From contig SXWA01000078.1 of NCBI GenBank assembly GCA_005791575.1, positions 6,688 through 70,687 of the forward strand: 64,000 bases of DNA, written 5' to 3'. Positions within the stretch are counted from its first letter, which is position 1. Every line of letters starts with the position of its first letter. This document shows, piece by piece, positions 1 through 37,800 of this stretch. The translations under genes were made by a program, and so were the position numbers. The notes under the pieces were generated by a model, which saw only the letters and a program-made list of their open reading frames with translations, ran no database searches and had not been told where the DNA came from. The stretch comes from Planctomycetaceae bacterium. GTDB lineage: Bacteria > Planctomycetota > Planctomycetia > Pirellulales > UBA1268.

Positions 1-1248
1 GCCATGGACCGGTCGAACCACCAGCCCCCACAGCGCACCGGCTGCGAGGACCTGACCGATCACCTCGAGCCGGTAGGGTTTGAAGACGTTCCAGACGAAG
101 AGGAAGATCGACGCCGTCACCATCCAGCCGTAGAGGTTGCTGGCCACGGCGTAGGTGGCGAACGCCCAGCGGTTGCGTCGCGGGAGGAACGGATCCTCCG
201 GCTGCTCGATCCCGAGGCACCAGTGGCTGGCGAGCCGGCCGAGGATCGAACTGGCCTTCTGGCGGAGATTGGGGATCTCGAGCACGTCGGAGAGGATGTA
301 GTAGCCGTCGTAGCGCATCAGCGGATTGGCATTGAAGAGGATCGTCGACACGCTCGAGACGAACATCACGTCGAGGCACAGCTGGTTGAAGGTGCCGGCG
401 TGCGAATTCCACCACAGGTAGGTGGCGATCGAGGCGATGATCAACTCGACGTACATGCCTGCGGCACCGATCGCCGCCCGCCGCCACTTGCTCGGCAGCA
501 TCCAGCTGTCGGAGACGTCGCAGTAGAGGCACGGCGTGAAGACGAGGAGCATCACCCCCATCTCATGGCATTCACCGCCGTAGTGCTTGCACGACAGTCC
601 GTGGCCGAACTCGTGGAGGACCTTCGTGAAGGCGAGGGCGGCGGCGAGCCAGAACCAGTTGCCCGAGGCGAAGAACTGGTTGAAGGCCGGGAGGCGGCTG
701 CGGAAGTCGTCGAAGTTGACGAGCACGAGCGCCACGGCCGAGGCGACGAACACGAGCATCGCCACGATCGCCGGCGGTGAGAACAGCCAGCCGAACCAGG
801 GGTCGAGCCGCTCGAGCAGCCGGTCGGGGTCGATGCCACGGAAGCGCATCGCCATGATGTTGGCGAGCCACGCCTTCCACTGCCGCCAGAGCCGTTGGCG
901 GCGCCGTTCGAAGAGCTGCGGCCCCTGCCCGGAACGGTCGCCGATCACCAGTCCGCTGCGGTGGAGGGTGGCGACGAACCGCGACAATTCGTCGAGACCG
1001 ATCCGCCGGGGGGGGAATTTCTCCTCGAACCTGGCCTGCAGCGCCTCGAGGCTGGCCTTGCCGTCGAGCATGTCGAGGAGCGCGTATTCCTCGGGCCGGA
1101 AACGGTAGTAGGCCAGCGAGATCGGATCCTTCACCACCCACCAGGCCTGCCCCTGGTGGACCTGGCGGTTCGCGACCAGATCGCCACGGCGGCGCAGGCC
1201 GATCGGCCGGGTGGTACTGGAGCGAAAGGCATCGGCGGCGGTGGACAT
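1..1248 (-). CDS. M50-family (site-2-protease-like) integral-membrane zinc metallopeptidase with an N-terminal PqqD/RRE-like domain; the 3' end runs off the window
   Basis: Absent from the ORF track because there is no stop codon in the window. Manual translation of the - strand from the ATG at 1246-1248 gives MSTAADAFRSSTTRPIGLRRRGDLVANRQVHQGQAWWVVKDPISLAYYRFRPEEYALLDMLDGKASLEAL... and stayed open in every stretch I translated. The HEFGHG (HExxH) motif is encoded at 598-615 and is followed by LSCKHYGGECHEMGVMLLV and hydrophobic segments. The gene starts 19 nt downstream of the HlyD gene. Confidence 0.8.
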   Translation of the reverse strand, partial: MSTAADAFRSSTTRPIGLRRRGDLVANRQVHQGQAWWVVKDPISLAYYRFRPEEYALLDMLDGKASLEALQARFEEKFPPRRIGLDELSRFVATLHRSGLVIGDRSGQGPQLFERRRQRLWRQWKAWLANIMAMRFRGIDPDRLLERLDPWFGWLFSPPAIVAMLVFVASAVALVLVNFDDFRSRLPAFNQFFASGNWFWLAAALAFTKVLHEFGHGLSCKHYGGECHEMGVMLLVFTPCLYCDVSDSWMLPSKWRRAAIGAAGMYVELIIASIATYLWWNSHAGTFNQLCLDVMFVSSVSTILFNANPLMRYDGYYILSDVLEIPNLRQKASSILGRLASHWCLGIEQPEDPFLPRRNRWAFATYAVASNLYGWMVTASIFLFVWNVFKPYRLEVIGQVLAAGALWGLVVRPVHG

Positions 1249-1267
1249 CGGGCAGCCCTCGACCTCG

Positions 1268-2338
1268 CTACCGTGCCGCGGCCTGGGGATCGGCTGCCGG
1301 GGGCGCGGTGAGGTCGCGCCGCACCGGCGGCAGGGGCGCCTGGTTGGAATGAATCGTCATCCGCGCCGTCTGACCGGGCCGCATGAGCCACGTGCCCGAG
1401 TCGGGCACGAGCCGGTTGGCCACCTCGGCCCAGACCCGGTAATCACCGCCCGATTCGACGATCGGGCTGGTGAAGACGATCCGTCCGGAAAACGTCTCCA
1501 CGCGCTTGTCGGCGAGGGTGATTTGCACCGTCACCGGGCGGTCGCGGACCGCCTCGGGGTCGTGCCGGGCGGAGTCGACGTAGCCCTCGACCCGCAGCGT
1601 GTCGGCCCGAACGACCCGCGCGAGGGGATCGCCGGGCTGCAGCCATTCGCCCTCGTGGGGAAAGACCTCGACCACCACCCCGTCGAGCGGCGCCGTCACG
1701 AGCCGGCGGCCGATGGCATCGCTCGCCGCCTGAACCTCCACCTCCTTGGAGGTGGAGGTGAGGCCGGCCAGTTTCTGCTCGAGCCGCGCCTGCTCGATCG
1801 ACAATTCGCTCTTCTGTTGATTGAGCCTGAGGCGCTCGATTTCGACCGACGTGATCGCACCGGAGACCGTGCGGTTGGCGTCGTTGGCCTTCTCCAACTC
1901 GGCCCGGGCGACGAGCTCGGCCGCCACGGAGTAGCGGATGTCGACGTCGCTCTCCGCCTTGGCCACCGCCTGATCATGCTCGGCCTTGGCCTTGCGGCGA
2001 TCCGACTGCGGCTGGCTGTCGTCGATCTTGGCGATCACCGCCCCACGCGTGACGGTGTCCCCTTCACGGATGTCGAGCGATACGAGCACCCCCGCCTCCC
2101 GCGCCGGTACCTTCGCCTCCTGCACGAGCGACACCAGGCAGTTCGAGAGGATCGGCTCGTTGGCGGGTGACTCGCTCTCCACCGAACGCGGCCGCGCCGG
2201 CGGGGCCGGTTCATCGGCGCCCGTCCGCCCGGGGATGGCCGTCGCCGCGGCCGCCAGCACCGTGAGTGCCGCCGCCAGTCGCATCCGCGGTGCGGCATGC
2301 CGTTTGTCGTCCATCAGGAAACCCTCCGCGGAAAACAC
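1268..2338 (-). CDS. HlyD-family membrane-fusion (periplasmic adaptor) protein
   Basis: The 356-aa ORF has a signal-like N-terminus (MRLAAALTVLAAAATA). It has a lipoyl-like hairpin (REGDTVTRGAVIAKID), a long coiled coil and a beta-barrel segment (VTAPLDGVVVEVFPHEGEWLQPGDPLARVV). Alternative starts are at 2314 or 2284. Confidence 0.85.
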   Translation of the reverse strand: MFSAEGFLMDDKRHAAPRMRLAAALTVLAAAATAIPGRTGADEPAPPARPRSVESESPANEPILSNCLVSLVQEAKVPAREAGVLVSLDIREGDTVTRGAVIAKIDDSQPQSDRRKAKAEHDQAVAKAESDVDIRYSVAAELVARAELEKANDANRTVSGAITSVEIERLRLNQQKSELSIEQARLEQKLAGLTSTSKEVEVQAASDAIGRRLVTAPLDGVVVEVFPHEGEWLQPGDPLARVVRADTLRVEGYVDSARHDPEAVRDRPVTVQITLADKRVETFSGRIVFTSPIVESGGDYRVWAEVANRLVPDSGTWLMRPGQTARMTIHSNQAPLPPVRRDLTAPPAADPQAAAR

Positions 2339-2383
2339 GATCCGCCGACGGCAACGCCGTCGGCCAACTCTCGTCGGATCGGA

Positions 2384-4492
2384 TCAGAACAGTCGGAACA
2401 GGACCTGCGATTGGATGAACGCGAGCACGTCGTGGAACCAGACATACCCCAGCGAGCGCCGTCCGCAGGCGATCCGCGCGGTCACCGTCGCCCCGGCTCC
2501 AAGCTCCGGCCGCTCGTGCCGGTCGGGGTCGATGGTGACGCGGACCAACGCCACGTTTCCGCTCTCGCCGCGGACCTCGGCCTGTTCGTGGATCTCCTTG
2601 ACCGAGCCGCGGTGCCGCGTGCCGGGATCGGTCGCGAGGATGTAGTCGACGCTGAGTTCGCGCCCGCCCGACCGGGCGGCCAGGGCCGCCTCGTTGACCT
2701 GCCCGAGGCGATCGTCCGGCATGTGGATCTCGAGTTCCCAGGGGCCTTCCTTGTCGGCCACGGTGAGCAGCACCTGCCCCTTCTCCACCGGCCGGAGAAG
2801 CAGGCGATCGGCGACCTGCCAGGTCACCACAACGCCGTCGATCGGACTGCGGACCTCGAGATCGCGCTTCTTGTCCTCGTAGAGCTTCTGCTGGGCGTCG
2901 AGGCTCTCGATCTCCCGCTGCAGCTGGGCGGCACGGCCGGACATCCGCGTGCGCTCGTCGGCCGAGATCCGCTTGTCCTCGAGGAGGGCCCGGCGGGTGG
3001 AGACGAGTTGCTCCTCGGAGGAGGCCTTGCGGCCGAGCACGTCGGTGAGTGCCACCTCGAGATCGGTGTTGCGCAGCGTGACGAGCAACTGGCCGCGAGT
3101 CACCCCGACGCCGTGGGCGATCCCCGGGGCGATCTCCTTGACCACACCATCGACGCCGGCGAAGACGTCGCGTTTGTGGACCGGCTCGAGAGTCCCCTTC
3201 CCCTCCAGACGCAACTCGGCGGGGATGAAGATCAGGGCCGCGATCGCCGCCAGGCTGGCAAGCGCCGCGAGCACCGTTTTCGGCAGGTTGCGCGCCGTGG
3301 TGAGGGCGCGGGAGCGGCCCAGGACGTCGATCACACGGAACAGTGGCAGGCCCGTGTGGTCGAGGGAGTTGGCCAGGGCGATGCTGCCATGCTCGGCACA
3401 GACCTCGACGCGGGCCCGGCGGCCACCTTCGAAGGTGCTCGACGTGAACCATTCCGCGACCAGCACGCCGATCGGCTCACCCGCAGCGACGTCCGCCGGC
3501 GGCGCCGCCTCCGCCTTGGCCACGGCCACCGCGTCGACGCCACCCGGCTTCACGACCGGTGTCTTCCGCGGTCGCACGAGCGGCAGGATCGCCAGCCCGC
3601 TGGCGTGCGACTCGTCGATGTAGTGCTCCAACTCCTCCTCGATCTGCGGCGGCAATTCGCGCGCGGGATCGGGATGCCAGAGCGCATCGCGTGCCCGGGC
3701 CACGACCCGGGCGAGCGCCTCGATGGCCTGCACCGCGGTGGCCCGCCGCTCCACCGATTCCTGGCCGCTGACCGCCTCGAGGCGCAGCCGCCGGCCGCGG
3801 CGGACCAGCACGCTGACCCGGTCGCACCCGATGATCCGGCGCGCCTCGTTGGCCAGGGTGAAGGCCGTGGCCACGGGGTCGAGCGACTCGTGCACCTGGC
3901 GGCTGAAGCGGTCGACCTGGACGAGCGCCGCCTGCTGGCTGTCGAGTGACTTCACCTGCCTGCGGACGAGGTAGCTCCCCGCCACCCCTGCGACCTGATC
4001 GACGAACACCAGGTAGCCCTGCTCCACCTCCGGTTGGTTGTGGTGGTGGAACACCTCCAGGAGCCCGGCGCGAGTGCCGCTCCGTTCCAACGGTGCCGTG
4101 ATCACCAGCAGATCGGTGGGATTGTTCGAGACCGGCCGCCCATCGGGACCGTTGAGCTGGGCGCGGGCGGGAACGAGCATCGCGTTGGGGGCGGCGAGGA
4201 GCGACTGCACCAGCCGCCCATGGGTTTCCTGCGGTTCGCCTGGCTCGGCCAAGCCGGTGGCCTGCATGCCCGAATGGCAGACCGGTTCGCAACGTCCCTG
4301 GTCACCCACCAGCCAGACCAGCCCGCCGACCGCCCCCATCGCCTCGATGACCCGGTCGAGAAGGCCGCGAAAAAAGTCGGCCTCGGCGAGATCGGTGCGG
4401 CCGAGTTGGTCGATCTCGGAGATGATCGCGCGGATCTGCTGCCGGGATTCCTCGACAGCCTGTGGGTCCACGGTACTCATGCGGTCCACCAC
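2384..4492 (-). CDS. Membrane-fusion protein with a large N-terminal cytoplasmic GAF-like sensor region (two GAF-like modules, one TM helix, HlyD-type periplasmic part)
   Basis: The 702-aa ORF starts with about 390 aa of soluble sequence in two GAF-like blocks (..GGLVWLVGDQGRCEPV.., ..IIGCDRVSVLVRRGRRLRLEAVSG..). A TM helix follows (TVLAALASLAAIAALIFIP). The rest is HlyD-like (VTRGQLLVTLRN, a coiled coil, then RSPIDGVVVTWQV). Confidence 0.85.
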   Translation of the reverse strand: MVDRMSTVDPQAVEESRQQIRAIISEIDQLGRTDLAEADFFRGLLDRVIEAMGAVGGLVWLVGDQGRCEPVCHSGMQATGLAEPGEPQETHGRLVQSLLAAPNAMLVPARAQLNGPDGRPVSNNPTDLLVITAPLERSGTRAGLLEVFHHHNQPEVEQGYLVFVDQVAGVAGSYLVRRQVKSLDSQQAALVQVDRFSRQVHESLDPVATAFTLANEARRIIGCDRVSVLVRRGRRLRLEAVSGQESVERRATAVQAIEALARVVARARDALWHPDPARELPPQIEEELEHYIDESHASGLAILPLVRPRKTPVVKPGGVDAVAVAKAEAAPPADVAAGEPIGVLVAEWFTSSTFEGGRRARVEVCAEHGSIALANSLDHTGLPLFRVIDVLGRSRALTTARNLPKTVLAALASLAAIAALIFIPAELRLEGKGTLEPVHKRDVFAGVDGVVKEIAPGIAHGVGVTRGQLLVTLRNTDLEVALTDVLGRKASSEEQLVSTRRALLEDKRISADERTRMSGRAAQLQREIESLDAQQKLYEDKKRDLEVRSPIDGVVVTWQVADRLLLRPVEKGQVLLTVADKEGPWELEIHMPDDRLGQVNEAALAARSGGRELSVDYILATDPGTRHRGSVKEIHEQAEVRGESGNVALVRVTIDPDRHERPELGAGATVTARIACGRRSLGYVWFHDVLAFIQSQVLFRLF

Positions 4493-4748
4493 CCCCAGAG
4501 GTCAGCCGGGCAGGCCATGCGGCCCGGGGCGGGCCGTGACGCCACGAGGCCGCAGTTGGGCCGCGCCGCGAAGGCCGCCGAGGTCCGCCGGGTGCCGTTC
4601 ACCCGGCCCCGTTGGATCCCAATACTACGTCGGAACGGCCATGATGTGCGGAACGATCGGCACGGATCCCCCCATTTCCACCCCGTCGGAGGTGGTGAGA
4701 TGCGGGGGCTACCGGCCGGCCCCGACCCAGCGGCTGTGACCAGCCACT

Positions 4749-4777
4749 CCCGCCGGGAAACCCGTCGGCCCGGCGGG
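4749..4777 (-). terminator. Candidate stem-loop terminator downstream of the DUF3467 gene
   Basis: A perfect 9-bp inverted repeat, CCCGCCGGG (4749-4757) and CCCGGCGGG (4769-4777), flanks an 11-nt loop. It lies about 40-70 nt past the stop at 4819. There is no U-tract, so function is uncertain. Confidence 0.35.
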
Positions 4778-4818
4778 AGTAGCCATGGTGGAAGGCAGAC
4801 CCGCCTGGGCGGCGACCG

Positions 4819-5157
4819 TCAGGCCTTCGTCGCCTGCTGGTGGATGACCCGCCGCTGGACGTCGGTCTCGAGGACGCCGAACGCCTGCTCGTAGCGCTGC
4901 ACCGCCATGTGGAGCGCGTAGGCGAGCCGCTTCGCGGTGAAGAAGTTGACGATGATCCGCTGGGTGAGCTGGATCGTCTCCGGCGTCGTGCCGGCCACCT
5001 GCTTGTTGAGCCCGAAGTCGACGATCAACTCCTCCGGCGTGCCGGTGACGCGGCAGAAGTTGGCGTACGTGGCGGCGATGTGGGACTCGTCCACCGGCAC
5101 TGCCATGGGCTCGCCGGCGGGGCGGGTTTGCGGGGCGACGCGGGTTTCTTCAGACAT
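4819..5157 (-). CDS. DUF3467-family small protein
   Basis: The 112-aa ORF contains the core YANFCRVTGTPEELIVDFGLN....TQRIIVNFFTAKRL, which I recognise as typical of DUF3467. Composition is coding-like. Confidence 0.75.
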   Translation of the reverse strand: MSEETRVAPQTRPAGEPMAVPVDESHIAATYANFCRVTGTPEELIVDFGLNKQVAGTTPETIQLTQRIIVNFFTAKRLAYALHMAVQRYEQAFGVLETDVQRRVIHQQATKA

Positions 5158-5399
5158 GGAATCTCCGACGGATGGGGGTAGTGTGAATCAGGCCGGGCAC
5201 GACGTGCCGATTCGGGAACGGGATCCCCGAAGTCGGCAGCGTGCATCCCCGCCTGACCAGGAAGTCTACCAACCTGGGGCATGCCCCGCTCAACAGTCGG
5301 GACGACGCGCCCCGCTCGTCCGTGTCCAAGGTCCATCCCTGGCCTTTGCCACAGCCTCCTGGCAGTCGCGCGGCCCGCGTGAGGGGCTCGAGGGGGTGG

Positions 5400-6344
5400 T
5401 CAAGGCAGCGGTTCTGGCCCACGATCCATCCGGAAGGGGCCCGCCGGGTACCGCACCGGGAGACCGTGGCGCTCGAGCCAAGCCGGGGTGACGAACCTGC
5501 GCAGGAGGGCGATGAAGGTCCGCCGCGCGTCGCGGGGCCAATCCGCCGGGCCTCCCGCGCCAGCTTCGCACCCGGCCCAGGCCAACCGGCAGGGCCAACC
5601 CTGCTCCCGCGCGACGGTATCGAACCGTTCGGCGACCCGTAGGGTCCACGCCGCGCCGAAGGTCTCCCGGAAGGCGATCCAAGCCGCTTCGGTCCCCCTC
5701 CACGCTGCCGACGGGTCGCCTTCGGGGCGACTGCCGTGGGGGCCGGTCCGCGGCGCTGCGGGCCAGACCGCTGCCGCCACCACCGCCACCACCACCAGTC
5801 CGGTGCCGAGCGCATCGACGGGATCCCCCGCGGCCACCGCTCCCGATCCCCAGGGGAGGAAGGGCCTGGCGAGGAGCGCCTGCCCGAGCGCCAACGCTGC
5901 TGCCGGCGCCGCGCGCCGCGTGGCGGCGTGATTGAGCCACCCCACCGCGATGATCGCCGCCACGAGGAATCGCGAGAGGAGATGGACGTCGGGCGGAGAA
6001 CCCGGGCGGACGAGGGCGGCCGTGGCGGCCGGAAGAAGAATCACCACCGCAAGCGAGGCGACGATCGCCTGCCATACCCCATGCTGCGGCCGCTTTGCCC
6101 CCAGCAGCGACATCCCCGGGCAGAGGCCGAGGGCCACCAGGCACAGCCGCCGGCAGGCGAGCGTGGCGGCGTCGTCCGCAGGCGGGTTGGCGGAGAACCG
6201 CTCGGCCGCCAGTGCCAGTCCGGCGGCAATCCCCCACCACGCGGCGGGCACCGCCGTGCTGCCCCGCACCCTGTAGGCACCGACGGCGGCGGCCGCCGCC
6301 ACCACGAACCCCGCCGCCAAGCCGATCGAACCGGATGACTCCAT
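5400..6344 (-). CDS. Hypothetical polytopic membrane protein with a soluble C-terminal domain
   Basis: The 314-aa ORF has several Ala/Leu/Val-rich hydrophobic spans and a Trp/Arg-rich C-terminal domain of about 110 aa. The overlapping alternative frames are Arg/Gly/Pro-rich junk. Confidence 0.6.
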   Translation of the reverse strand: MESSGSIGLAAGFVVAAAAAVGAYRVRGSTAVPAAWWGIAAGLALAAERFSANPPADDAATLACRRLCLVALGLCPGMSLLGAKRPQHGVWQAIVASLAVVILLPAATAALVRPGSPPDVHLLSRFLVAAIIAVGWLNHAATRRAAPAAALALGQALLARPFLPWGSGAVAAGDPVDALGTGLVVVAVVAAAVWPAAPRTGPHGSRPEGDPSAAWRGTEAAWIAFRETFGAAWTLRVAERFDTVAREQGWPCRLAWAGCEAGAGGPADWPRDARRTFIALLRRFVTPAWLERHGLPVRYPAGPFRMDRGPEPLP

Positions 6345-6539
6345 GCTGCAAGGCTACCCGGCTTCATCGCGACCCGCTCGTGGTGCCACGTGTAGCGGTG
6401 GTGACGACGGCAAGGGCCGGGGAAACCGCGGCGGACAGCCGTGGCCGGCGACGCCGAAGACTCCCCTGGAAACCAACCGATGCACGCCCCACCGGCCCTC
6501 TCCGGGCCGCGCCGTGCCAGCGCCGCCCCGAGTACCGCC

Positions 6540-6938
6540 ATGAACCGCCCGCTATGCCGCCGCCCCGCCCTGGGAGCGGCCGTTCCCGTGATCGTTGCCC
6601 TCGTCGGCAGCGGCATCGCCGCCGTCTCGGCTCCCGCCATCGAGATGTTCACCTTCTTCGGCGATGGGAGCCGGATCGGGCTGCCGAGCCTCGAGGTGCC
6701 CATCGAGGCCTACCCGGGGAGTCCGCTCCGCAGCGACCGGATCAGGGCACGCCGCGGATGGCGTGTGCCCACGACCCGGACCCAGCCTGCCAGGTCGGCG
6801 CGCGGTCCCGTGGGGTCAGCAACCGGCACCCGCGCTGCCGGTCAGCCACCGGCAGCCGGGAACCGCATTCCTGGGCAGCTCGGTGATCCGGAGCCGATCG
6901 TCCCACCGGCTGCCATTCGTCCCTTCCCGGTGCGCTGA
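6540..6938 (+). CDS. Hypothetical small secreted or membrane-anchored protein
   Basis: The internal ATG at 6540 gives MNRPLCRRPALGAAVPVIVALVGSGIAAVSAPA, which is signal-peptide-like. GC3 is high in the first half. A GC hairpin follows directly after the stop. The C-terminal half is low complexity, so confidence is modest. Confidence 0.4.
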   Translation: MNRPLCRRPALGAAVPVIVALVGSGIAAVSAPAIEMFTFFGDGSRIGLPSLEVPIEAYPGSPLRSDRIRARRGWRVPTTRTQPARSARGPVGSATGTRAAGQPPAAGNRIPGQLGDPEPIVPPAAIRPFPVR

Positions 6939-6941
6939 CCA

Positions 6942-6961
6942 CCGCGCGGGCGCCCGCGCGG
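6942..6961. terminator. Candidate bidirectional GC-rich hairpin between convergent genes
   Basis: CCGCGCGG gcgc CCGCGCGG forms an 8-bp stem with a 4-nt loop. It sits between the stop of 6540..6938 (+) and the stop of the TPR gene at 6979 (-). Confidence 0.4.
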
Positions 6962-6978
6962 CCTACCGGGGGCGGAGT

Positions 6979-8388
6979 TCACTTCTTCGCTGCGCCCGAC
7001 TTCAGCTTCTCGAGCAGATCGACGGCGTCGGAGCGGGTGGCGAAGAACGGCTCGCTGGCCAGCACCTGCTCGAGGATCGACCGCGCCTTGTCGGCATCGC
7101 CACGGTCGGCGAGCACCCGGGCGAGGTAATAGGCCCCGTCCGTCGGCAGCGTGTTGTTCTGCGTGACACGACTGAACAGTTTCTCGGCATCCTCGCGCCG
7201 GCCGGTGCGGTAGTAGATCCACGCCAGCGTGGTCAGCGCGTTGGGCCCGATCGTGTTGTTGTCGCGGTACATGGCAACGTTGGCTTCAGCCATTTCGACA
7301 GCCCGCTGCCGCGGCTCCTTCTCCTCCGACTCGACGAGCACGAGTGCCAGCGAGTTGGATGCGGGAAAATTGCCCGGTGACTGGACATGGGCATCGTTGA
7401 GGAATTTCTCCGCCGAGCGGTAATCGCGGGCGATACGCGCCACCGTGCCGCGCACGAGCTTCGCACCGAGGCTCTTCTCATCGACCGCGAGTGCGGCGTC
7501 GGCATTGGTCTTCGCGGCCTCGAGGTCGTTCTGGGCCAGGAACCATTCGGCCGCGCCGAGGAGCACGCCGACGTCCTTGGGGGCCGCCTTCACCGCCGCC
7601 TCGATCTGCTTCCGGGCCACGTCCCGTTTCTTGGCGTCACTGTACAGTCGCGCCATCCACAGTTCGGGCTGGAGGGACTTGGGGTCGAGTTTCTTCGACT
7701 CCCGGAACTGCTCGAGGGCCTTGTCCTCCTCGCCAAGTTGGAAGAGCACGATGCCGAGCCGTTGCCGGGCGCTGGCGTTGTCGGGATCGAGGGTCATCCA
7801 GGCCTCGATGTGCTTGCGGGCCACGTCCCACTGGCGACGGGCCTCCGCCACGGCGGCGAGCCCCGCGTTGGAGCGGATCTCGAAGTCACGCTTGCGCTTG
7901 GGGTTTTCCGTGAACGCCTTCGTCAGGTCGGTGGCCTTGTTGAACAGCAGGCTCGACTCGGTGATCCGCCGGTCCTGGAAGGCAAGGTCGCCGAGCATCA
8001 GGTAGGGCTCGGGATCGGCGGGAAACTTGTTGGTCGTGTCCTCGAGTTCAGCCCGCGCCTCGGCGACTCGATTCACGTTCATCCAGAGCATCGCCATCAT
8101 CACCCCCGACGGGGGCAGCTTGGGATTGTTCGACTTCACACGCTCGAGGAGCGCCCGGCAGCCATCGATGTCGCTGGCCAGGAACCGGTTGATGGCGTTG
8201 GTCACCTCACCAGCCTGATCGTCATCGGAGACCGCCTTGCCGATGAGCATCTGGGCCGTCGGGATGTTCTGCGCACGTGCCTGCGTCGCCATGGTGCCTG
8301 CCACCACCAGGCAGAGCGCCACGACGACACCGCGGCCTGCCCGGCAGGCCAGCACGGGCGACAGCGCGAATGAACGGAGGCAGATCAT
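6979..8388 (-). CDS. Secreted TPR-repeat protein
   Basis: The 469-aa ORF has an N-terminal signal sequence (VVVALCLVVAGTMATQARAQ). It contains many 34-residue TPR-like repeats (..A.....A...P.....LG..) and ends in a Lys-rich tail. Confidence 0.85.
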   Translation of the reverse strand: MICLRSFALSPVLACRAGRGVVVALCLVVAGTMATQARAQNIPTAQMLIGKAVSDDDQAGEVTNAINRFLASDIDGCRALLERVKSNNPKLPPSGVMMAMLWMNVNRVAEARAELEDTTNKFPADPEPYLMLGDLAFQDRRITESSLLFNKATDLTKAFTENPKRKRDFEIRSNAGLAAVAEARRQWDVARKHIEAWMTLDPDNASARQRLGIVLFQLGEEDKALEQFRESKKLDPKSLQPELWMARLYSDAKKRDVARKQIEAAVKAAPKDVGVLLGAAEWFLAQNDLEAAKTNADAALAVDEKSLGAKLVRGTVARIARDYRSAEKFLNDAHVQSPGNFPASNSLALVLVESEEKEPRQRAVEMAEANVAMYRDNNTIGPNALTTLAWIYYRTGRREDAEKLFSRVTQNNTLPTDGAYYLARVLADRGDADKARSILEQVLASEPFFATRSDAVDLLEKLKSGAAKK

Positions 8389-8597
8389 GCGGGGGGCTCC
8401 TGCTGACGACGGGTTCGGGAATGGTCGAAGGGCGCTTCACGATACACGGTCTGGGAGTCGGCTCAAGCCTGCCGACGGAGGGCCGCGGCGTGGGGCCACG
8501 CGGCCGCCCGCCCAGCAGGCCGACCGATGGGGCCGCGCGCGGGGATTTGTGATAGCCTCCCGCCTGCGGTCGATCGTGAGGTGCCGGGAGAACGGGC

Positions 8598-10268
8598 ATG
8601 TTGTTGGGGGCGGTGTTCGAGCGCGAGGTAGGGTGCGCCCCGCGGGCCCGCGGGTGGTTCGTCGCCCGGGCGGTCTACTGCGGGGCCCTGCTGGCGATCA
8701 TCGCCACCTGCTGGTTGGTGGTGACGGGCACGCAGTCGGTCGCCACCGCCGGCGACACCGCCCGATTCGGCGCCACCCTGCTGCGGATCCTGGCGCCGCT
8801 CCAACTCTCGCTGGCAGTGCTCGCCGCCGCCCTGGCCGGGGCAGTCGCCGTGAGCGCGGAGAAGGATCGGCGCACGCTGGAGCTCCTGCTCGTCAGCCGG
8901 CTCACCGATCGGGAACTGGTGCTCGGGAAGCTCGCGGGCAGCCTTGTCAGGGTCGTCCTGCTGCTGGTCGCGGCGGTGCCGATGTTCGCGATCGCGGCGC
9001 TGTTCGGCGGAGTGACCGTCCCGCAGCTCGCACGACTGTTCGTGGTGACGATGGCCGCCGCGCTGGCGGCGGCGAGCATCGCCACCGCCGTCGCCTTCTG
9101 GAAGGACACCACCTTCCAGACCCTCGCCATCACCCTCTTCCTGTTGGCGACGTGGGTGGCGGTCGGCGAGACCCTCGCCGCGACGCGTGGTCCGCTGGCG
9201 GGCGCCGCCGTGTCGCCGGCGCGCGCGGTGTTCGCCGCCCTGGCGCCGGAGGGGGGCCGCACGCTGGTGCCATTCCTCGCCGTGTGTGCCGCGCTGATCG
9301 GCGGAGCGAACGCCGTGGCGGTCGCCTGCCTGCGGCGCTGGAACGTGGCGCGGGAGGCGCGGCGGCCGGCGTCCGCCGAGCAAGCCGCCGCCTTCCGGCC
9401 GGCGCGGAAGGTGTGGAGCAACCCGATTCTCTGGCGTGAGATCTGCACCCGGGCGTATGGCCGGATGATCATCCTCGTCAGACTCGCATGGCTGGCCCTG
9501 TTCGCCGTCGCGGTCGTGGGAATCGTGCGCGAGGCGGCGGCCGCGCGGCCCGACCGGTTCGCGGTGGCGATGGCGGTGGTCCCGATGGCGCTGGCGAGCC
9601 TGGTCGCGGTGGCGGCACTCGCCGTCACCAGCATCACGACCGAACGCGACCGGGGCGCGCTCGATCTGCTCCTCGTGAGCGACCTCGAACCGGCGGAGTT
9701 CGTCTGGGGCAAACTCCTCGGCGTGCTGGTCGTGGCCCGCGAGATCGTCCTTCTCCCCCTGTTTCTCTGCGTGGTGCTCGTGGCCACCGGCATCACCACG
9801 GTCGAGAACGGCATCTACCTCGCGGTGGGGATGGCGGCACTGCTGTTTTTCGCCGCGGTGCTCGGGTTCCACGTCGGCTTGTCGTATGCGGCGTCACGGC
9901 AGGCGATCGCCGTAGCGCTGGGAACGGTCGCGTTCCTGTTCATCGGTGTGGCCACCGCGATGCGGATCATGGTGGCGTTCGGCTCCAGTTTCGAGCTCCA
10001 ACTGGCACCCTTCCTCGCGGTGATCGTCGGTGGGGCGGTCGGACTCTACGCGGCGCTGTCGGCCCGCAACCCCTCCCCCGCGATCGCCTGGGCGTCGGCC
10101 CTCCTGCCAGCGCTGACGTTCGTCGCGATCACCGGATTTCTCCAGGGCAACAGCCTCCAGGTCCTCCTCGTGGTGCTGGTGGCCTACGGGTTTGCCACGA
10201 CCGCGCTCCTCGTCCCGGCGATCGGCGCCTTCGATCTGCTCACGGGGCGGACGACTGCGGCTGATTGA
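8598..10268 (+). CDS. ABC-2-type transporter permease, internally duplicated (two 6-TM-like halves)
   Basis: The 556-aa ORF has two halves that each carry the motif E(K/R)DR.TLELLLVS.L....(V/F)..GKL followed by hydrophobic helices (SAEKDRRTLELLLVSRLTDRELVLGKLAG and TTERDRGALDLLLVSDLEPAEFVWGKLLG). Confidence 0.75.
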   Translation: MLLGAVFEREVGCAPRARGWFVARAVYCGALLAIIATCWLVVTGTQSVATAGDTARFGATLLRILAPLQLSLAVLAAALAGAVAVSAEKDRRTLELLLVSRLTDRELVLGKLAGSLVRVVLLLVAAVPMFAIAALFGGVTVPQLARLFVVTMAAALAAASIATAVAFWKDTTFQTLAITLFLLATWVAVGETLAATRGPLAGAAVSPARAVFAALAPEGGRTLVPFLAVCAALIGGANAVAVACLRRWNVAREARRPASAEQAAAFRPARKVWSNPILWREICTRAYGRMIILVRLAWLALFAVAVVGIVREAAAARPDRFAVAMAVVPMALASLVAVAALAVTSITTERDRGALDLLLVSDLEPAEFVWGKLLGVLVVAREIVLLPLFLCVVLVATGITTVENGIYLAVGMAALLFFAAVLGFHVGLSYAASRQAIAVALGTVAFLFIGVATAMRIMVAFGSSFELQLAPFLAVIVGGAVGLYAALSARNPSPAIAWASALLPALTFVAITGFLQGNSLQVLLVVLVAYGFATTALLVPAIGAFDLLTGRTTAAD

Positions 10269-10331
10269 GGTCCGCCGACGACCGCGACCGCGGAGCGACG
10301 ACGGTCGGCTGGTCCACCGGGCGAGAGTGCA

Positions 10332-10418
10332 CCTGATTCACCGGCGCCTGATTCACCGGCGCCTGATTCACCGGCGCCTGGAGCACCGGCGCCTGGAGCA
10401 CCGGCGCCTGGAGCACGC
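10332..10418. repeat. 15-bp tandem repeat, about 5.8 copies in two variant blocks
   Basis: CCTGATTCACCGGCG occurs 3 times, then CCTGGAGCACCGGCG occurs about 2.8 times. The array sits in the 168-bp gap between the convergent stops at 10268 (+) and 10437 (-). Confidence 0.9.
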
Positions 10419-10436: not shown

Positions 10437-11264
10437 TCAGCGGCGGGGCTCGGCCGCGGCCGGAGACGCGGCGACCGCGGCCGGCGCCGGCACCGTCAGG
10501 GCCGCGAGCCGTTCGACGCCCTCCGCCGACCCGTTGGTCTCGACGGCCCGACGGTAGCTGGCGATCGCGTCGGCGGTGCGGCCGAGTGACTCCTGCGCCA
10601 ACCCCTCCATCACCAGCACGTCGGCCGGTACCCGATCGGCACCGTAGGTTTCCCCGAGGATTGCCAGCGTGGCGAGAACGCGCTGGGGTCGATCCAGACG
10701 GCGGTACACCGTCGCCGTGTCGAGGAGCAGGCCCCTGTCGTCGGGTGCCAGCGCCAGGCCGCGGTGGAAGTCGGCCAACGCCTCACGGTCCTGACCGCGG
10801 GCGAGCGCGACCTGCCCGTGCACCCGCCACGCCGCCGCGGAACCGGTGTCGAGGCGCGTGGCCTCGGCGGCGAGGCGTTCGGCGTCGTCGAGGAGGCCGA
10901 TCTCGGTGTACATCCGCGCGGCGACGACGCACAGTTCCGGATCGCTGGGGCTGTGGCGCAGCGCTGCGGCGATCTGGTCGACGGCCGCCAGACGCTCTCC
11001 CCGTTCCCAGAGGACCTCCGCGTAGTGCTGCCGCGCCTCGACATCGGCGGGACAGCTGCGGACGGCGCGGTCGAGGAGCCGCTGGGCCTGGTCCAATTCG
11101 TTCCGGTCGGCGGCCGCGAGCCCCTCATTGGCAAGCCGACGGGCCTGGGCGAGTTCGGCCGGTGCGGGACCGGTGCGGGGGAGCAGCCGGCAGCCGGAGA
11201 GCGCACTGGCGCCGACAAGGAGGCCAGCCAACAGCCGCGCGGCGGACGGACGGGGGAGGTTCAC
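10437..11264 (-). CDS. TPR-repeat lipoprotein
   Basis: The 275-aa ORF has a lipobox (LLVGASALSGC) after MNLPRPSAARLLAG. The rest is TPR-like repeats (A..L..A......P.......A..Y...G..D.A). Confidence 0.85.
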   Translation of the reverse strand: MNLPRPSAARLLAGLLVGASALSGCRLLPRTGPAPAELAQARRLANEGLAAADRNELDQAQRLLDRAVRSCPADVEARQHYAEVLWERGERLAAVDQIAAALRHSPSDPELCVVAARMYTEIGLLDDAERLAAEATRLDTGSAAAWRVHGQVALARGQDREALADFHRGLALAPDDRGLLLDTATVYRRLDRPQRVLATLAILGETYGADRVPADVLVMEGLAQESLGRTADAIASYRRAVETNGSAEGVERLAALTVPAPAAVAASPAAAEPRR

Positions 11265-34831: not shown

Positions 34832-37800
34832 CTAGCCTCCGGACAACGGAATGGGAGCGATGGCGGCGGGCAGGGACGATGCCGATGCACCCGCGGGAGC
34901 CGGTTTCGCTTCGGCTGCAGGAGGTGCGTCACTGGCGGGGACGGCGGGGGCCTGTCGCAGGTACGCCTCGAGCGACAGCTGCTGCTTGGCGAAGGCGTCG
35001 AAGTGCATCAGCAGGTCGGTCAGCGCCGATACCTGTTGCTCACTGGTGCCCTTGTAGAGATCCTGGCTGACCGGCTTGTCGAAGGGAATGTTCACCGGCA
35101 TGCCGGTGTAGGGGAGGTAGCGCTTCGGGTTGGCGATCCAGTTGTGGACGTAGTCCGGACGCAGCCGCTCATGGACCTCGGCCAACTGCGGAGCGAGGGC
35201 CTTGGGGTTGCCCGGAGGTGAATAGGAGCCCACGAGGTGGCACTTCACGCAGTAATTCGTGTTGGTGACAATCTTCATCGCGCCGTCGAGGTGCCCCGGA
35301 TGGGCCTGTTCCGTCGCCGCGAGCGACGACTCGTCGAGGCGTGCGTCGTAGACATACGGGAAGACCGATCCATCGACGGCGGCGAAGTAATTGACCAGGG
35401 CCGTCGCCTCCGACGCATGGAAGTTGAACTTCGGCATCCGCAGCACCGCCGCGGGGCGGATCGTCTGCGGGTTGAGCAGGAACCGGTGGAGCCAGCCTGA
35501 CTGCACTTTATTGCCCTCGCCCACGAGGGGCGGCGGCAGCCAGCCCCAGGCGTCGTCGGCCTTGACGTTGGGGTTGATCTGCTTTTCGTCGGCGATGACC
35601 GTGGGGAACAGCAGGCGTGCCAGATCGCCGCCGCGTGCCGGATAGTGGCGGCCGGCGGCCACGGCGTCGAGCGGCACCTGCAGGGCCTGACCTCCCACCG
35701 CGCGCGGTTCACCGTCGACGAGGACGTCCTTCCAGAGCATCACCGGGAGGTGCGGCACCGATTCGGTGTCCCCGTCCTCGATCGGCACGCCGTCCTCGTC
35801 GACGAACTGCGGCTTCCCCGACGTGGGATCGAGGATCGGCATCCCCGACACCAGGGCGAGGCGCCTTCCCTGCCGGTCGGTGGTCAGCGACCGCGCCACG
35901 TCGTCCGGGGTGAAGTGCGGCGACAGGAACGGATAGTCGGCCGGCGGGGTCGCGCTGCCGAGCGATTCAGGCCGGTAGCGCAGATCCCACCGGTCCATCT
36001 GCAGGGCATGGCATCCGCCGCAATTGTACCGCTCGGCGACGACCAACCCGTCGAGACGGGCCTGATCCCGGGGATCGGGTTTGTGGATGTACTGTGCGGC
36101 AGGCGGTTCGGAGACCAGACCGAGCACGAACGTCATCACTGCTTCGCGCTGCTTGGCGTCGAAGGGGAACTGCGGCATCCGGTAGCGCTCGTTATAGGTC
36201 TTGTTCTCGGCCTTCTTGTAGTCGTAGCTGCGGGGGGCGCGGAGCTTCTGCCAGAGGAAGCCCTCGCGCTCGTGGGCGAGCAGCTTCTCGAGGAAGAAAC
36301 CGGTGTCGGGATCGACCGATTCGGGGCTCACGTGGGGGTCGGTGACCCTGCCGTAGGCAAGGTCAGGGGCAAGCGGCTCTTCACCGAGAAGCGCACCGGC
36401 CGGCCCGGTCGTGCCGTGGGCACCGTCGGCATCGTGTGATCCGGAGAGCGCCCCGCCATGCAGATCGGCACCGTGCGGATCGGCACCATGCAGATCGTTA
36501 CCGTGCGGATCGGCGTGTGCGCCTCCATGACGACCATGTTCGATCTGGTGCATGACGAAGTGGGCCACCTGTTCGAAGGCGATCTTTGACGACTCCTTTC
36601 GGCCCCAGTCGGCGAGGGCGGCGCCCGCCGCCTTGGCATCCTCGAAGCCGGGGATGTCGTGGCAGGACGAGCAGGCGAGTTTGGCGATCGTCTTCTTGCC
36701 GACGTACTCCAAGAGCCGGGCGTCGCGATCCGCCCCGCTCATGCCGACGAGCATCCGCTCGTCGCCCTGGATCACTGTCTGGTCGGAGGGCAGCCCCTCG
36801 GCGAGCACCCGCTCGGCGCGGGCCGCCGGGAAGCGATCCTTGAGGTACATCAGCGCCAGTTCGGCGGTGGCGGCCCTTTCGCCATCGGTAAGGGAATCGG
36901 CAGCGGGAATGTCGCGCGGATTCCACTCCTCGGTGGAACGGAGGAGATACGCGGTGGCGTCGGCAGCCGGATCGCTGACCGTTCCATCGGCCAGCTTGAC
37001 CGGCTCGAGGAGGACGTTCGGCATGATCGTCCGCGGGTGGTAGCGAGACGGCTCCCTGAGCCAGGAATAGAGCCACTTTGCCCCATCGGGGTGCGAGGCC
37101 GCCTTGGCACCGATCCGCGACAGATTGGGGCCATGGATGCTCGTCGCACCGGGGAAGTCGGCGTGCTGATGGCACGCCAGGCACCCGCGCACCTCGACCA
37201 CCTTCTTGCCGCGTTCCACGTCGGCTGCGGCGGTGATGCCGGCCGGTGGGGCAACGTAGTCGAACGGCTGGCTGACGCTGTCGAGGTAGGCGATCATCGA
37301 GCGGATCTCGATCGGCTCGTAGCGCTGCGACTCCTCGAGACCCTTGCCGGAGAGATGCTCCCAGAGTCCGAAAAACCGCGGCATCTTGGTGGAGGGGCGG
37401 AAATCCTGGGGGTTTCGCAGCCACGAATAGAGCCAGTCGAAACCGACCTTCGACGCGACATGGCGCAGGCTCGGTCCGACCTTCGGGAGCCCGCCCGGGG
37501 TCTCCGGATCCTTGAGGAGTGTCGCCATCTGGTGGGTCCGCTCCGCGAGCACACCATCAGCGCCGGCCGCGGCGTCACGCTCGATCACCTGACGGAGACG
37601 CTCACGGGCCTGGCGCCCATCGGGACTGTGGGCCACTTCGTCGGCCCAACGCCTCGCCATGCCGCCATCGTCGAGGCTGTCGAGCGCCGGATCGGCCGAC
37701 ACGGCCGCCGCGACTTCGTGGAAGTTGGGGGCAAGACGCATGTCTGGGCCGATCCGTTTGTCGGGGCCGGCCCAGCCGTTGATCTCGTGACAGCCATAGC

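Follow-up and report, generated by a model that had tools for sequence, protein, structure and literature searches.

We use profile searches, structure prediction and comparison of gene neighbourhoods to study a small group of genes at the left end of a 64,000-nucleotide stretch of DNA (the window, below) from a Planctomycetaceae bacterium (assembly GCA_005791575.1, contig SXWA01000078.1, positions 6,688 to 70,687 of the forward strand). Three co-directional genes lie on the minus strand at 2384-4492, 1268-2338 and 1-1248, separated by gaps of 45 and 19 nt. The initial annotation, whose coordinates for these genes we confirm, read them as a GAF-sensor membrane-fusion protein (MFP), a second HlyD adaptor and an M50 protease with a PqqD-like head, which together could form a ligand-gated system that recognises a peptide, cleaves it at the membrane and routes it across the envelope. 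We find that the third gene encodes a fusion of a head resembling a RiPP recognition element (RRE, where RiPP stands for ribosomally synthesised and post-translationally modified peptide), a site-2-type protease (S2P) and a further HlyD module. A small DUF3467 gene is part of the same unit, and related units in Proteobacteria stand beside genes for giant proteins with a shared type of N-terminal leader. The features of the locus are as follows.

4819..5157, minus strand: DUF3467 protein, 112 aa, conserved as fourth component, directly upstream of the GAF adaptor gene (Pfam DUF3467, E 7e-21)
2384..4492, minus strand: GAF-GAF-transmembrane-HlyD adaptor, 702 aa (HlyD_3; TIGR01730 RND_mfp)
3974..4384, minus strand: first GAF-like module of that adaptor, divergent, residues 37-173 (GAF_2, E 9e-5)
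3389..3877, minus strand: second GAF module, residues 206-368 (GAF, E 2e-3; ortholog scores)
3221..3277, minus strand: transmembrane helix of the GAF adaptor, residues 406-424, read from sequence as TVLAALASLAAIAALIFIP
1268..2338, minus strand: plain HlyD-type adaptor, 356 aa from GTG or 348 aa from an ATG at 2314 (HlyD_3, HlyD_D23, TIGR01730)
1..1248, minus strand: RRE-S2P-HlyD fusion, residues 1-416 of 744, cut off by the left window edge (daptide_HExxH; AlphaFold2 model)
940..1176, minus strand: predicted RRE/PqqD-like winged-helix head of the fusion, residues 25-103 (profiles, predicted structure)
601..615, minus strand: HEFGH zinc-binding/catalytic motif, H212, E213, H216 (invariant in 85 homologs)
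298..333, minus strand: N306-x-N-P-x4-D314-G-Y-Y, S2P-type third-ligand motif (invariant in 85 homologs)

The DNA is 70% G+C, and because the G+C content at third codon positions of the trio (0.88-0.91) is far above that at second positions (about 0.45-0.50), we take the three to be real genes. The fusion gene can be completed from L001, a 90-kb metagenome contig in the European Nucleotide Archive that is 99.96% identical to window positions 1-10350 and extends 8.7 kb past the left edge. This contig was retrieved by exact-sequence look-up with the 348-aa ATG form of the middle gene only; look-ups with the GTG-start forms and with the ATG-start form of the 702-aa protein returned no contig.

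The full-length fusion protein has 744 aa. The initial annotation was right to call it an M50-type protease with HEFGHG encoded at 598-615, but the protein is not a protease only: beyond residue 416 there is one more transmembrane helix and then, at residues 457-736, a third HlyD module that the original gene inventory missed (HlyD_D23 39.5 bits, HlyD_3 23.0-27.2 bits, TIGR01843 E 1e-12). The NCBIfam model daptide_HExxH (NF041824) matches the fusion with E 2e-56 and 191.8 bits over model positions 13-376 of 379, and head and membrane domain are both covered. The 416 residues encoded in the window were modelled with AlphaFold2, at a predicted local distance difference test score of 84 and a predicted template-modelling score of 0.80.

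For the head of this particular protein, Pfam PqqD (PF05402, cut-off 23.4) gives 13.5 bits (E 0.09), and three independent models put weak PqqD/RRE matches on residues 55-101. Across the family, PqqD is matched individually by 21 of 27 heads from two phyla (best E 2.4e-7). Precomputed PF05402 hits fall on about a third of the proteobacterial orthologs, several of which NCBI names 'PqqD family peptide modification chaperone'. When a profile of the head is compared with the PDB, the best match is the PqqD structure 3g2b (E 0.0015), and the lasso-peptide RRE TfuB1 and PqqD 5sxy are also found. The model has the beta3-alpha3 topology of an RRE (strands 25-31, 34-41 and 46-50; helices 52-60, 67-77 and 85-98), and Foldseek pairs it with TbiB1 5v1v (probability 1.00, template-modelling score 0.67), the lasso-peptide B1 protein 6jx3_B (0.99) and PqqD 5sxy (0.97), the template-modelling scores against leader-bound RREs and PqqD being about 0.6-0.7. 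On the strength of these profiles and this predicted structure, the assignment of the head as an RRE/PqqD-like winged helix, already suggested in the initial annotation, holds; its candidate ligand is a leader of the LE-x-R type described below.

The protease domain scores 22.7 bits against Pfam M50 (PF02163), which does not pass the cut-off of 27.2, and its ortholog at locus L081, from a clade at 50% identity, passes with 29.7 bits. In an alignment of 85 homologs from two phyla, nine residues never vary: H212, E213, H216, N306, N308, P309, D314, Y316 and Y317. The HExxH lies within a helix predicted at 198-222, and the motif around the third zinc ligand reads N306-A-N-P-L-M-R-Y-D314-G. Since the catalytic motif is invariant in all 85 homologs, we read the domain as an active-looking enzyme of the site-2 type, its catalytic site to all appearance intact. 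Foldseek matches it to MjS2P 3b4r (E 5e-4, probability 1.00) and to SpoIVFB 8vjl (probability 0.99). With RseP, SpoIVFB and MjS2P the fusion shares the fold, the HExxH and the NxxPxxxxDG motif, but it lacks their PDZ or CBS domains and carries an RRE-like head and an HlyD tail instead. Six cysteines of the fusion (Cys220, 227, 240, 243, 291 and 344; window 220-590) are specific to planctomycetes, where they occur in 25-26 of the 85 sequences, and the proteobacterial residues at these positions are V, A, L or I. Four of the six flank the HExxH helix and a beta-hairpin, and together they may form a clade-specific metal site or disulfides.

All three proteins of the trio match HlyD barrel-sandwich/lipoyl-like modules as well as the TIGR01730 and TIGR01843 models. 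HlyD_3 (Pfam cut-off 22.2) scores 37.7 bits in the 702-aa protein, whose residues 426-679 also match TIGR01730 RND_mfp at E 1e-15, and 52.9 bits in the 356-aa protein, where HlyD_D23 reaches 41.3 bits and TIGR01730 E 2e-26; the latter is the conventional adaptor it was first taken for, and its N-terminus is a signal or anchor sequence that reads RMRLAAALTVLAAAATAIPG. The cytoplasmic half of the 702-aa protein had been described as two GAF-like modules ahead of one transmembrane helix and an HlyD part. The helix and the HlyD part stand, and the GAF assignment needs to be graded. In this protein both modules score below threshold, GAF_2 giving 23.1 bits on residues 37-173 (cut-off 28.6) and GAF 19.0 bits on residues 206-368 (cut-off 22.4). 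The second module exceeds its cut-off in orthologs (25.5 bits in L081, 33.0 in Mesorhizobium, 50.1 in Methylosinus), and by these profile scores its assignment is solid at the level of the family. For the first, GAF_2 matches 5 and GAF matches 2 of 12 orthologs, and the top three PDB matches to its profile are GAF domains at E of about 0.04; such weak but recurrent matches suggest a divergent GAF-like module.

Upstream of the GAF adaptor lies the DUF3467 gene, also absent from the original inventory. It is syntenic in about 50 planctomycete loci, its product is 32-34% identical (E 1e-10) to the proteobacterial DUF3467 proteins encoded at the same position of the module, and each of the 11 DUF3467 genes found on plasmids is part of such a module or adjoins one. 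By this synteny and similarity, DUF3467 is a conserved fourth component of the unit in two phyla, and in the pathway proposed below it would be an obligate small partner. Its predicted fold is a three-strand sheet with a long helix, and a structure search with the model gave no significant match. The spacer between DUF3467 and the GAF gene is 326 nt here and 5-301 nt across 48 loci (median 77 nt), with no conservation of sequence. We considered whether a precursor open reading frame (ORF) or an RNA is hidden in it and rejected the idea on the grounds of its variable length and unconserved sequence; because the spacer is of this kind, the four genes behave as one unit without a hidden element. 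Short conserved ORFs and modifying enzymes were looked for at the locus and none was found.

How widespread is this unit? A word-indexed search returns more than 6,100 homologs of the fusion, of which the best 120 are 74-95% identical to it, have a constant length of 743-745 aa, come without exception from Planctomycetota and fall into more than 100 clusters. An exhaustive search gives 12,254 representatives at 50% identity, the best 150 of which are nearly all about 720-760 aa long, and at least 485 species-level genomes encode a relative. The neighbourhood survey of the trio shows it to be conserved in Proteobacteria as well as across planctomycete loci: no planctomycete locus of sufficient length departs from the order DUF3467, GAF-HlyD, HlyD, fusion, and identities within the trio run from about 50% up to 95%. 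The 50%-identity clade (L081) retains the trio with changed flanks. Database names for the fusion family vary from 'HlyD' and 'peptidase M50' to 'PqqD family chaperone', 'biotin/lipoyl-binding protein' and 'YydH'.

The gene set itself is already published. A survey of secondary SecA_DEAD proteins (PLoS One 2015, PMC4452313) describes the same three protein clusters around them, a Peptidase_M50-like/HlyD protein, an HlyD 'secretion protein' and a GAF-HlyD protein, with an ABC (ATP-binding cassette) transporter missing, in Planctomycetes, Verrucomicrobia, Proteobacteria, Nitrospirae and Chlorobi. In the proposal of its authors, SecA_DEAD would act as the ATPase and the M50-like protein would be the component in the membrane; they note that the SecA_DEAD partner can be encoded at a distant site of the genome, and term the biological role 'completely unknown' (PMC4452313). 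All three co-occurring proteins are present in the window, which is a member of this module, but no adjacent SecA_DEAD gene is found either there or in 80 planctomycete loci. The RRE head, DUF3467 and the class of substrate were not recognised in that work. A literature search on LEPR-XLL, DUF3467, the RRE, S2P and HlyD combination and the E. coli accessions yielded nothing relevant beyond PMC4452313, the daptide paper and a 2026 preprint, and in it we found nothing that ties the module to DUF3467, to an RRE or to a particular kind of substrate.

The initial annotation had no transporter in view, and this stands now that the contig has been extended to the left. Downstream of the fusion gene on L001 there is no ABC, RND (resistance-nodulation-division) or C39 gene, so the neighbour that would have refuted the initial annotation by making this a standard type I or tripartite efflux locus is absent. 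More broadly, a cognate ABC, RND or MFS (major facilitator superfamily) transporter is missing from the window, from L001, from the 80 planctomycete loci and from 11 proteobacterial operons; in about 90 loci of two phyla, translationally coupled proteobacterial operons included, no such gene accompanies the module. The absence of a pump is a genuine feature of the whole family. We also find no TolC in the window, either by tblastn with proteobacterial TolC or by a Pfam scan of its roughly 30 credible genes, and no SecA_DEAD partner in the 64 kb or within 10 kb of the module in the 80 planctomycete loci (searched with SecA hallmark motifs and by tblastn with four proteobacterial SecA-core proteins). 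The credible genes in the other 60 kb of the window include no TolC, SecA-like or exporter gene.

Two neighbours bear on the question of an outer-membrane exit. On L001 (14223-16694, convergent strand, about 1.9-4.4 kb past the left window edge) a gene encodes a protein of 823 aa that begins with a signal peptide, continues with a Gly/Tyr/Trp-rich region weakly matching an inverse-autotransporter beta-domain and ends in beta-helix repeats, and it is conserved near the locus in many relatives at 50-87% identity. We tried this protein as the exit and rejected it, since the signal peptide, the barrel-like region and the beta-helix repeats together indicate a surface protein and not a TolC. The gene that directly follows the trio in the 50%-identity clade, after a 42-nt gap, is for an outer-membrane protein of the Wza-like Poly_export/SLBB kind (L081:12274-13626); it could be an alternative outer-membrane exit for planctomycetes that have no TolC in cis.

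Now we consider what the module accompanies elsewhere. Annotated proteobacterial relatives of the fusion align over its full length at about 25-30% identity, and in 11 of 11 loci checked the module lies directly downstream of a giant gene of 10-49 kb. These loci are from Alisedimentitalea, Methylosinus, Azospirillum, Mesorhizobium, Pseudosulfitobacter (two loci), Thalassospira, Variovorax, Terrarubrum, Pontibrevibacter and the IncF plasmids of E. coli. All 11 giants start with a basic stretch followed by [LIF]E-x-R-h-h-h, that is, a leader of the LEPR-XLL type; one of the 11 was counted through its LEPR-XLL annotation by the NCBI annotation pipeline (PGAP) and one after correction of a mis-called start. 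The latter is the Alisedimentitalea giant, labelled 'calcium-binding protein' (L095, NZ_CP123586.1, ~183224), whose annotated start is too far downstream: eight codons before the called Met, and in frame, are a basic stretch and the leader LEPRLLLAAD. With the NCBIfam LEPR-XLL model (NF012209, cut-off 17), five of six N-termini pass (29.6, 33.3, 30.8, 35.6 and 17.3 bits) and Variovorax gives no hit. Read directly from the sequences, the leaders have no hydrophobic h-region, and they are therefore not Sec or Tat signals.

The proteobacterial operons carry DUF3467 in the same slot as the window does and recurrently add TolC, a short third adaptor and a SecA core of about 650 aa. This core consists of SecA_DEAD, the preprotein cross-linking domain (PPXD) and NBD2, with E down to 1e-103, and TolC is present in cis in six of the relatives. 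PGAP gives the SecA-core genes (L085:11192-13108, L088:15044-17068, L087:14180-16141 and L104:13307-15292; ~640-675 aa) various names: 'translocase', 'preprotein translocase subunit SecA' and the misnomers 'prepilin peptidase' and 'DEAD/DEAH box helicase'. What follows the conserved Arg of the leader tracks the subtype of the operon: hLLSAD goes with operons of the DUF3467/GAF/SecA type and the variant (F/Y/Q)(M/L)FD(A/G)A with TolC-first operons, those without DUF3467, GAF and SecA. A compact version occurs in E. coli (L105, NZ_CP081687.1, 44829-64580), where a leader-bearing 4,459-aa Ig-like protein is accompanied by TolC, two adaptors and an S2P-HlyD fusion; it is found on IncF plasmids and a few chromosomes, in 24 of 5,426 complete genomes, and we found no literature on it. 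One proteobacterial module also contains a SapC-family gene (L088:14230-15051), and a preprint reports SapC and TolC flanking signal-less giant proteins in Chlorobium chlorochromatii (10.64898/2026.03.19.712371), a hint that the pathway now and then includes SapC as an accessory.

The corresponding question for planctomycetes is whether genes with such a leader lie near the module. A strict LEPR regular expression is not discriminating on planctomycete DNA (4 matches against 2 for the control) and was abandoned for a broader filter, in which ORFs of at least 200 aa with high third-position G+C and a start containing a basic stretch and E-x-[LIVM]-E-x-R were sought in 944 kb of related loci. 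The scan returns 15 ORFs against 1 for the reversed motif, and about 13 look genuine. These 13 encode proteins of about 640-2300 aa of several unrelated types (S8 peptidases, Calx-beta proteins and others), and all of them lie 1.2-4 kb downstream of the fusion gene, with none in 271 kb of upstream flank (binomial p = 2.7e-4). The rest of the window holds no leader-type ORF. In this organism the candidate cargo, judged by its N-terminus, is an S8/Calx-beta peptidase just past the window edge (L001:16865-18805), which starts MRADHKRRLKQRRQPGLETLEQRVVMDAAAP, scores 15.3 bits against LEPR-XLL (E 0.011) and lies 3.6 kb past the fusion stop and 4.6 kb beyond the window edge.

We hold it to be an even call that the four genes make up the core, in inner membrane and periplasm, of a pathway dedicated to the export and maturation of proteins with LE-x-R leaders. 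Its cargo would carry a basic stretch and then an LEPR-XLL-type (LE-x-R-h-h) leader, with no Sec or Tat signal. The cytoplasmic RRE head would bind this leader, much as RRE domains bind RiPP leaders, and docking would place the leader at the site-2 protease active site, where it would be removed. From its own anchor in the inner membrane, each of the three HlyD-type modules would contribute to a periplasmic duct toward an outer-membrane channel, and the GAF modules could couple or regulate the process through a cytoplasmic ligand or partner, gating by a ligand being pure conjecture. In Proteobacteria the SecA core would be the likely energiser, with TolC supplied from the same operons. The general idea of the initial annotation, a leader recognised, cleaved at the membrane and routed outward, remains in our opinion the best reading; its small-peptide cargo is not supported, and the cargo would probably be large or giant proteins. 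A wider claim we offer only tentatively, and would sooner doubt than assert: that this is a distinct and widespread secretion pathway in which an LEPR-XLL/LE-x-R leader takes the place of a Sec, Tat or C-terminal type I signal, is read by an RRE and removed by the fused S2P, and cargo that includes adhesin-like giants of more than 10,000 aa passes through a three-MFP duct without an ABC, RND or MFS pump, the motor where present being a stand-alone SecA core.

Several points weigh against the proposed export pathway. The support is computational throughout, and every step of the mechanism, from leader binding and cleavage to the translocation route, the energy source and the role of the GAF modules, is one that we infer. 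The window contains no leader-bearing gene, no TolC, no SecA-like gene and no ATPase. The planctomycete leaders stay below the LEPR-XLL cut-off of 17 (15.3, 11.7 and 10.4 bits), among the 28 loci that extend 4 kb or more downstream only 12 have a leader-type ORF, and the 13 observations are not independent because the loci come from related genomes. The LE-x-R counts cover the loci around the module. We know of no site-2 protease that serves as a protein-conducting channel, which leaves the route through the inner membrane unexplained. Finally, a housekeeping function distinct from secretion could be the reason why the fusion is so very highly conserved (about 75% in a family-level clade).

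The main rival explanation keeps the trio for recognising, trimming and bridging and gives translocation itself to a conventional transporter whose genes lie elsewhere, either an ABC or RND pump or SecYEG with later pick-up of the cargo in the periplasm. As a rule membrane-fusion proteins depend on a pump, the window encodes no energy source, the SecA cores of the proteobacterial loci normally work with SecYEG, and an orphan ABC-2-type permease (8598-10268) is syntenic with the module in the close clade. That permease, however, is lost in the 50%-identity clade, and the absence of an ABC, RND or MFS gene beside the module holds over about 90 loci in two phyla; we regard a transporter encoded elsewhere as unlikely, though it deserves to be taken seriously. 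If instead the planctomycete module had a housekeeping role in the envelope, such as quality control of membrane proteins or tethering, its LE-x-R neighbours would be mere synteny. The exceptional conservation of the fusion, of DUF3467 and of the chromosomal housekeeping neighbourhood fits such a role, as does the finding that leader-type neighbours occur at only 12 of the 28 loci. But those neighbours are of several unrelated types and not one conserved ortholog, and in Proteobacteria leader-bearing giants go with this same core of four genes; a housekeeping role is improbable in our estimate.

Maturation and export of a small RiPP or bacteriocin, with the RRE binding a short precursor, the S2P trimming it and the adaptors exporting the product, has in its favour that the closest characterised relatives of the fusion are the RiPP leader proteases MpaP (daptide) and YydH/LiaK and that RRE domains have so far been known from RiPP pathways. 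Nothing else at the locus fits this picture: modifying enzymes and conserved short ORFs are not present, the sole sizeable spacer is variable and unconserved, orthologous loci consistently adjoin giant leader-bearing genes, and 74-95% conservation in more than 100 clusters within a chromosomal housekeeping context is too high for a specialised-metabolite gene. We consider small-peptide cargo very improbable. Signalling by regulated intramembrane proteolysis, in which the S2P would cleave a tethered regulator such as an anti-sigma factor while the HlyD and GAF parts act as periplasmic and cytoplasmic sensors, would be the classical role of an S2P (RseP, SpoIVFB), in line with the Foldseek matches and with the sensory nature of GAF domains. 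Against it, no locus examined has an adjacent sigma or anti-sigma gene, the presence in cis of TolC, a SecA core and giant cargo-like genes speaks for transport, and an RRE head implies a soluble leader ligand; of the explanations weighed here we find this the least credible.

The characterised systems closest to the locus compare with it as follows. The daptide protease MpaP is a precedent for the joining of an RRE to an intramembrane site-2 protease: the daptide paper shows that its RRE is N-terminal and that the enzyme takes off the leader of a RiPP. It has the same N-terminal RRE and HExxH intramembrane protease, and its model aligns nearly end to end. The score, however, is 192 bits against a cut-off of 300, and the fusion adds a C-terminal HlyD module of about 320 aa. 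The other genes of a daptide cluster (DUF-RRE protein, decarboxylase, aminotransferase, methyltransferase and precursors ending in Thr) are absent here, and daptide cargo consists of peptides of about 25 aa, whereas the apparent cargo here is large proteins. YydH/LiaK (NF058609) has a homologous HExxH membrane core and is the source of the JGI/KEGG name 'putative peptide zinc metalloprotease protein'; its model matches residues 163-330 of the fusion (E 2e-13, 50 bits, cut-off 225), but the fusion has additional head and tail domains and no YydF/YydG/YydIJ context. Membership of the daptide and YydH equivalogs was rejected on score and on gene context.

In bacteriocin type I secretion systems (C39-ABC, MFP and TolC, as in CvaAB-TolC), a protease built into the inner-membrane component recognises and cleaves the N-terminal leader. 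By analogy the leader-cleavage logic here would be alike, with RRE and S2P in place of the C39 cysteine protease domain; there is no ABC transporter, however, the protease is fused to an MFP and not to a pump, and three different MFPs are present. LapEBC/LapA and SiiCDF/SiiE resemble the proteobacterial relatives in having the gene of a giant repetitive Ig-like or Ca-binding protein beside MFP and TolC genes, but they use an ABC transporter and a C-terminal signal, whereas the cargo signal of this module appears to be N-terminal (LEPR-XLL type) and no ABC gene is present. Canonical type I secretion, daptide and YydH membership each fail on a defining feature.

The remaining neighbourhood is described here for completeness. 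Downstream of the fusion gene, L001 encodes a MOSC_N protein, the convergent 823-aa surface-type protein, the S8/Calx-beta peptidase and an MCP. The MOSC_N-domain protein (L001:13323-14198, 291 aa) is co-directional, follows the fusion gene after a 21-nt gap and is kept in that place across the close clade at 44-71% identity. The orphan permease in the window is encoded on the plus strand (556 aa, no adjacent ATPase), and the minus-strand genes around it, at 6979-8388, 5400-6344 and 10437-11264, comprise those of two secreted TPR proteins and of a 314-aa membrane protein. The synteny of these genes and the permease with the module is confined to the close clade, and in conservation (~75%) the permease comes near the fusion protein. 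At the boundary of the block shared with L001, window positions 10350-10399 and L001 positions 1965-1976 show a structural difference of about 50 nt that may be strain variation or an assembly artefact. Housekeeping genes of the chromosome fill the remaining 60 kb of the window: fliP/fliR, purD, icd, tatC and those for cytochrome oxidase and bc-type complexes. The respiratory cluster (cox, bc-type and ctaB-like genes, ~25.6-41.6 kb) includes the gene of a 1,528-aa protein (34832-39418, minus strand) that has matches to cytochrome c and PDZ-like domains and whose size is out of the ordinary for a cytochrome.

Because a compact version of the module sits on E. coli IncF plasmids, the proposal of a leader-directed export pathway is directly testable. 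If it is true, this would be the first role of an RRE outside RiPP biosynthesis, extending RRE biology from small natural products to protein secretion, and a pump-less architecture would be added to the envelope-spanning MFP/TolC systems. Many giant surface and secreted proteins of bacteria that have no recognisable export signal would gain an export route, and, should the link between leader and RRE be confirmed, that secretion route would be both new and very common.

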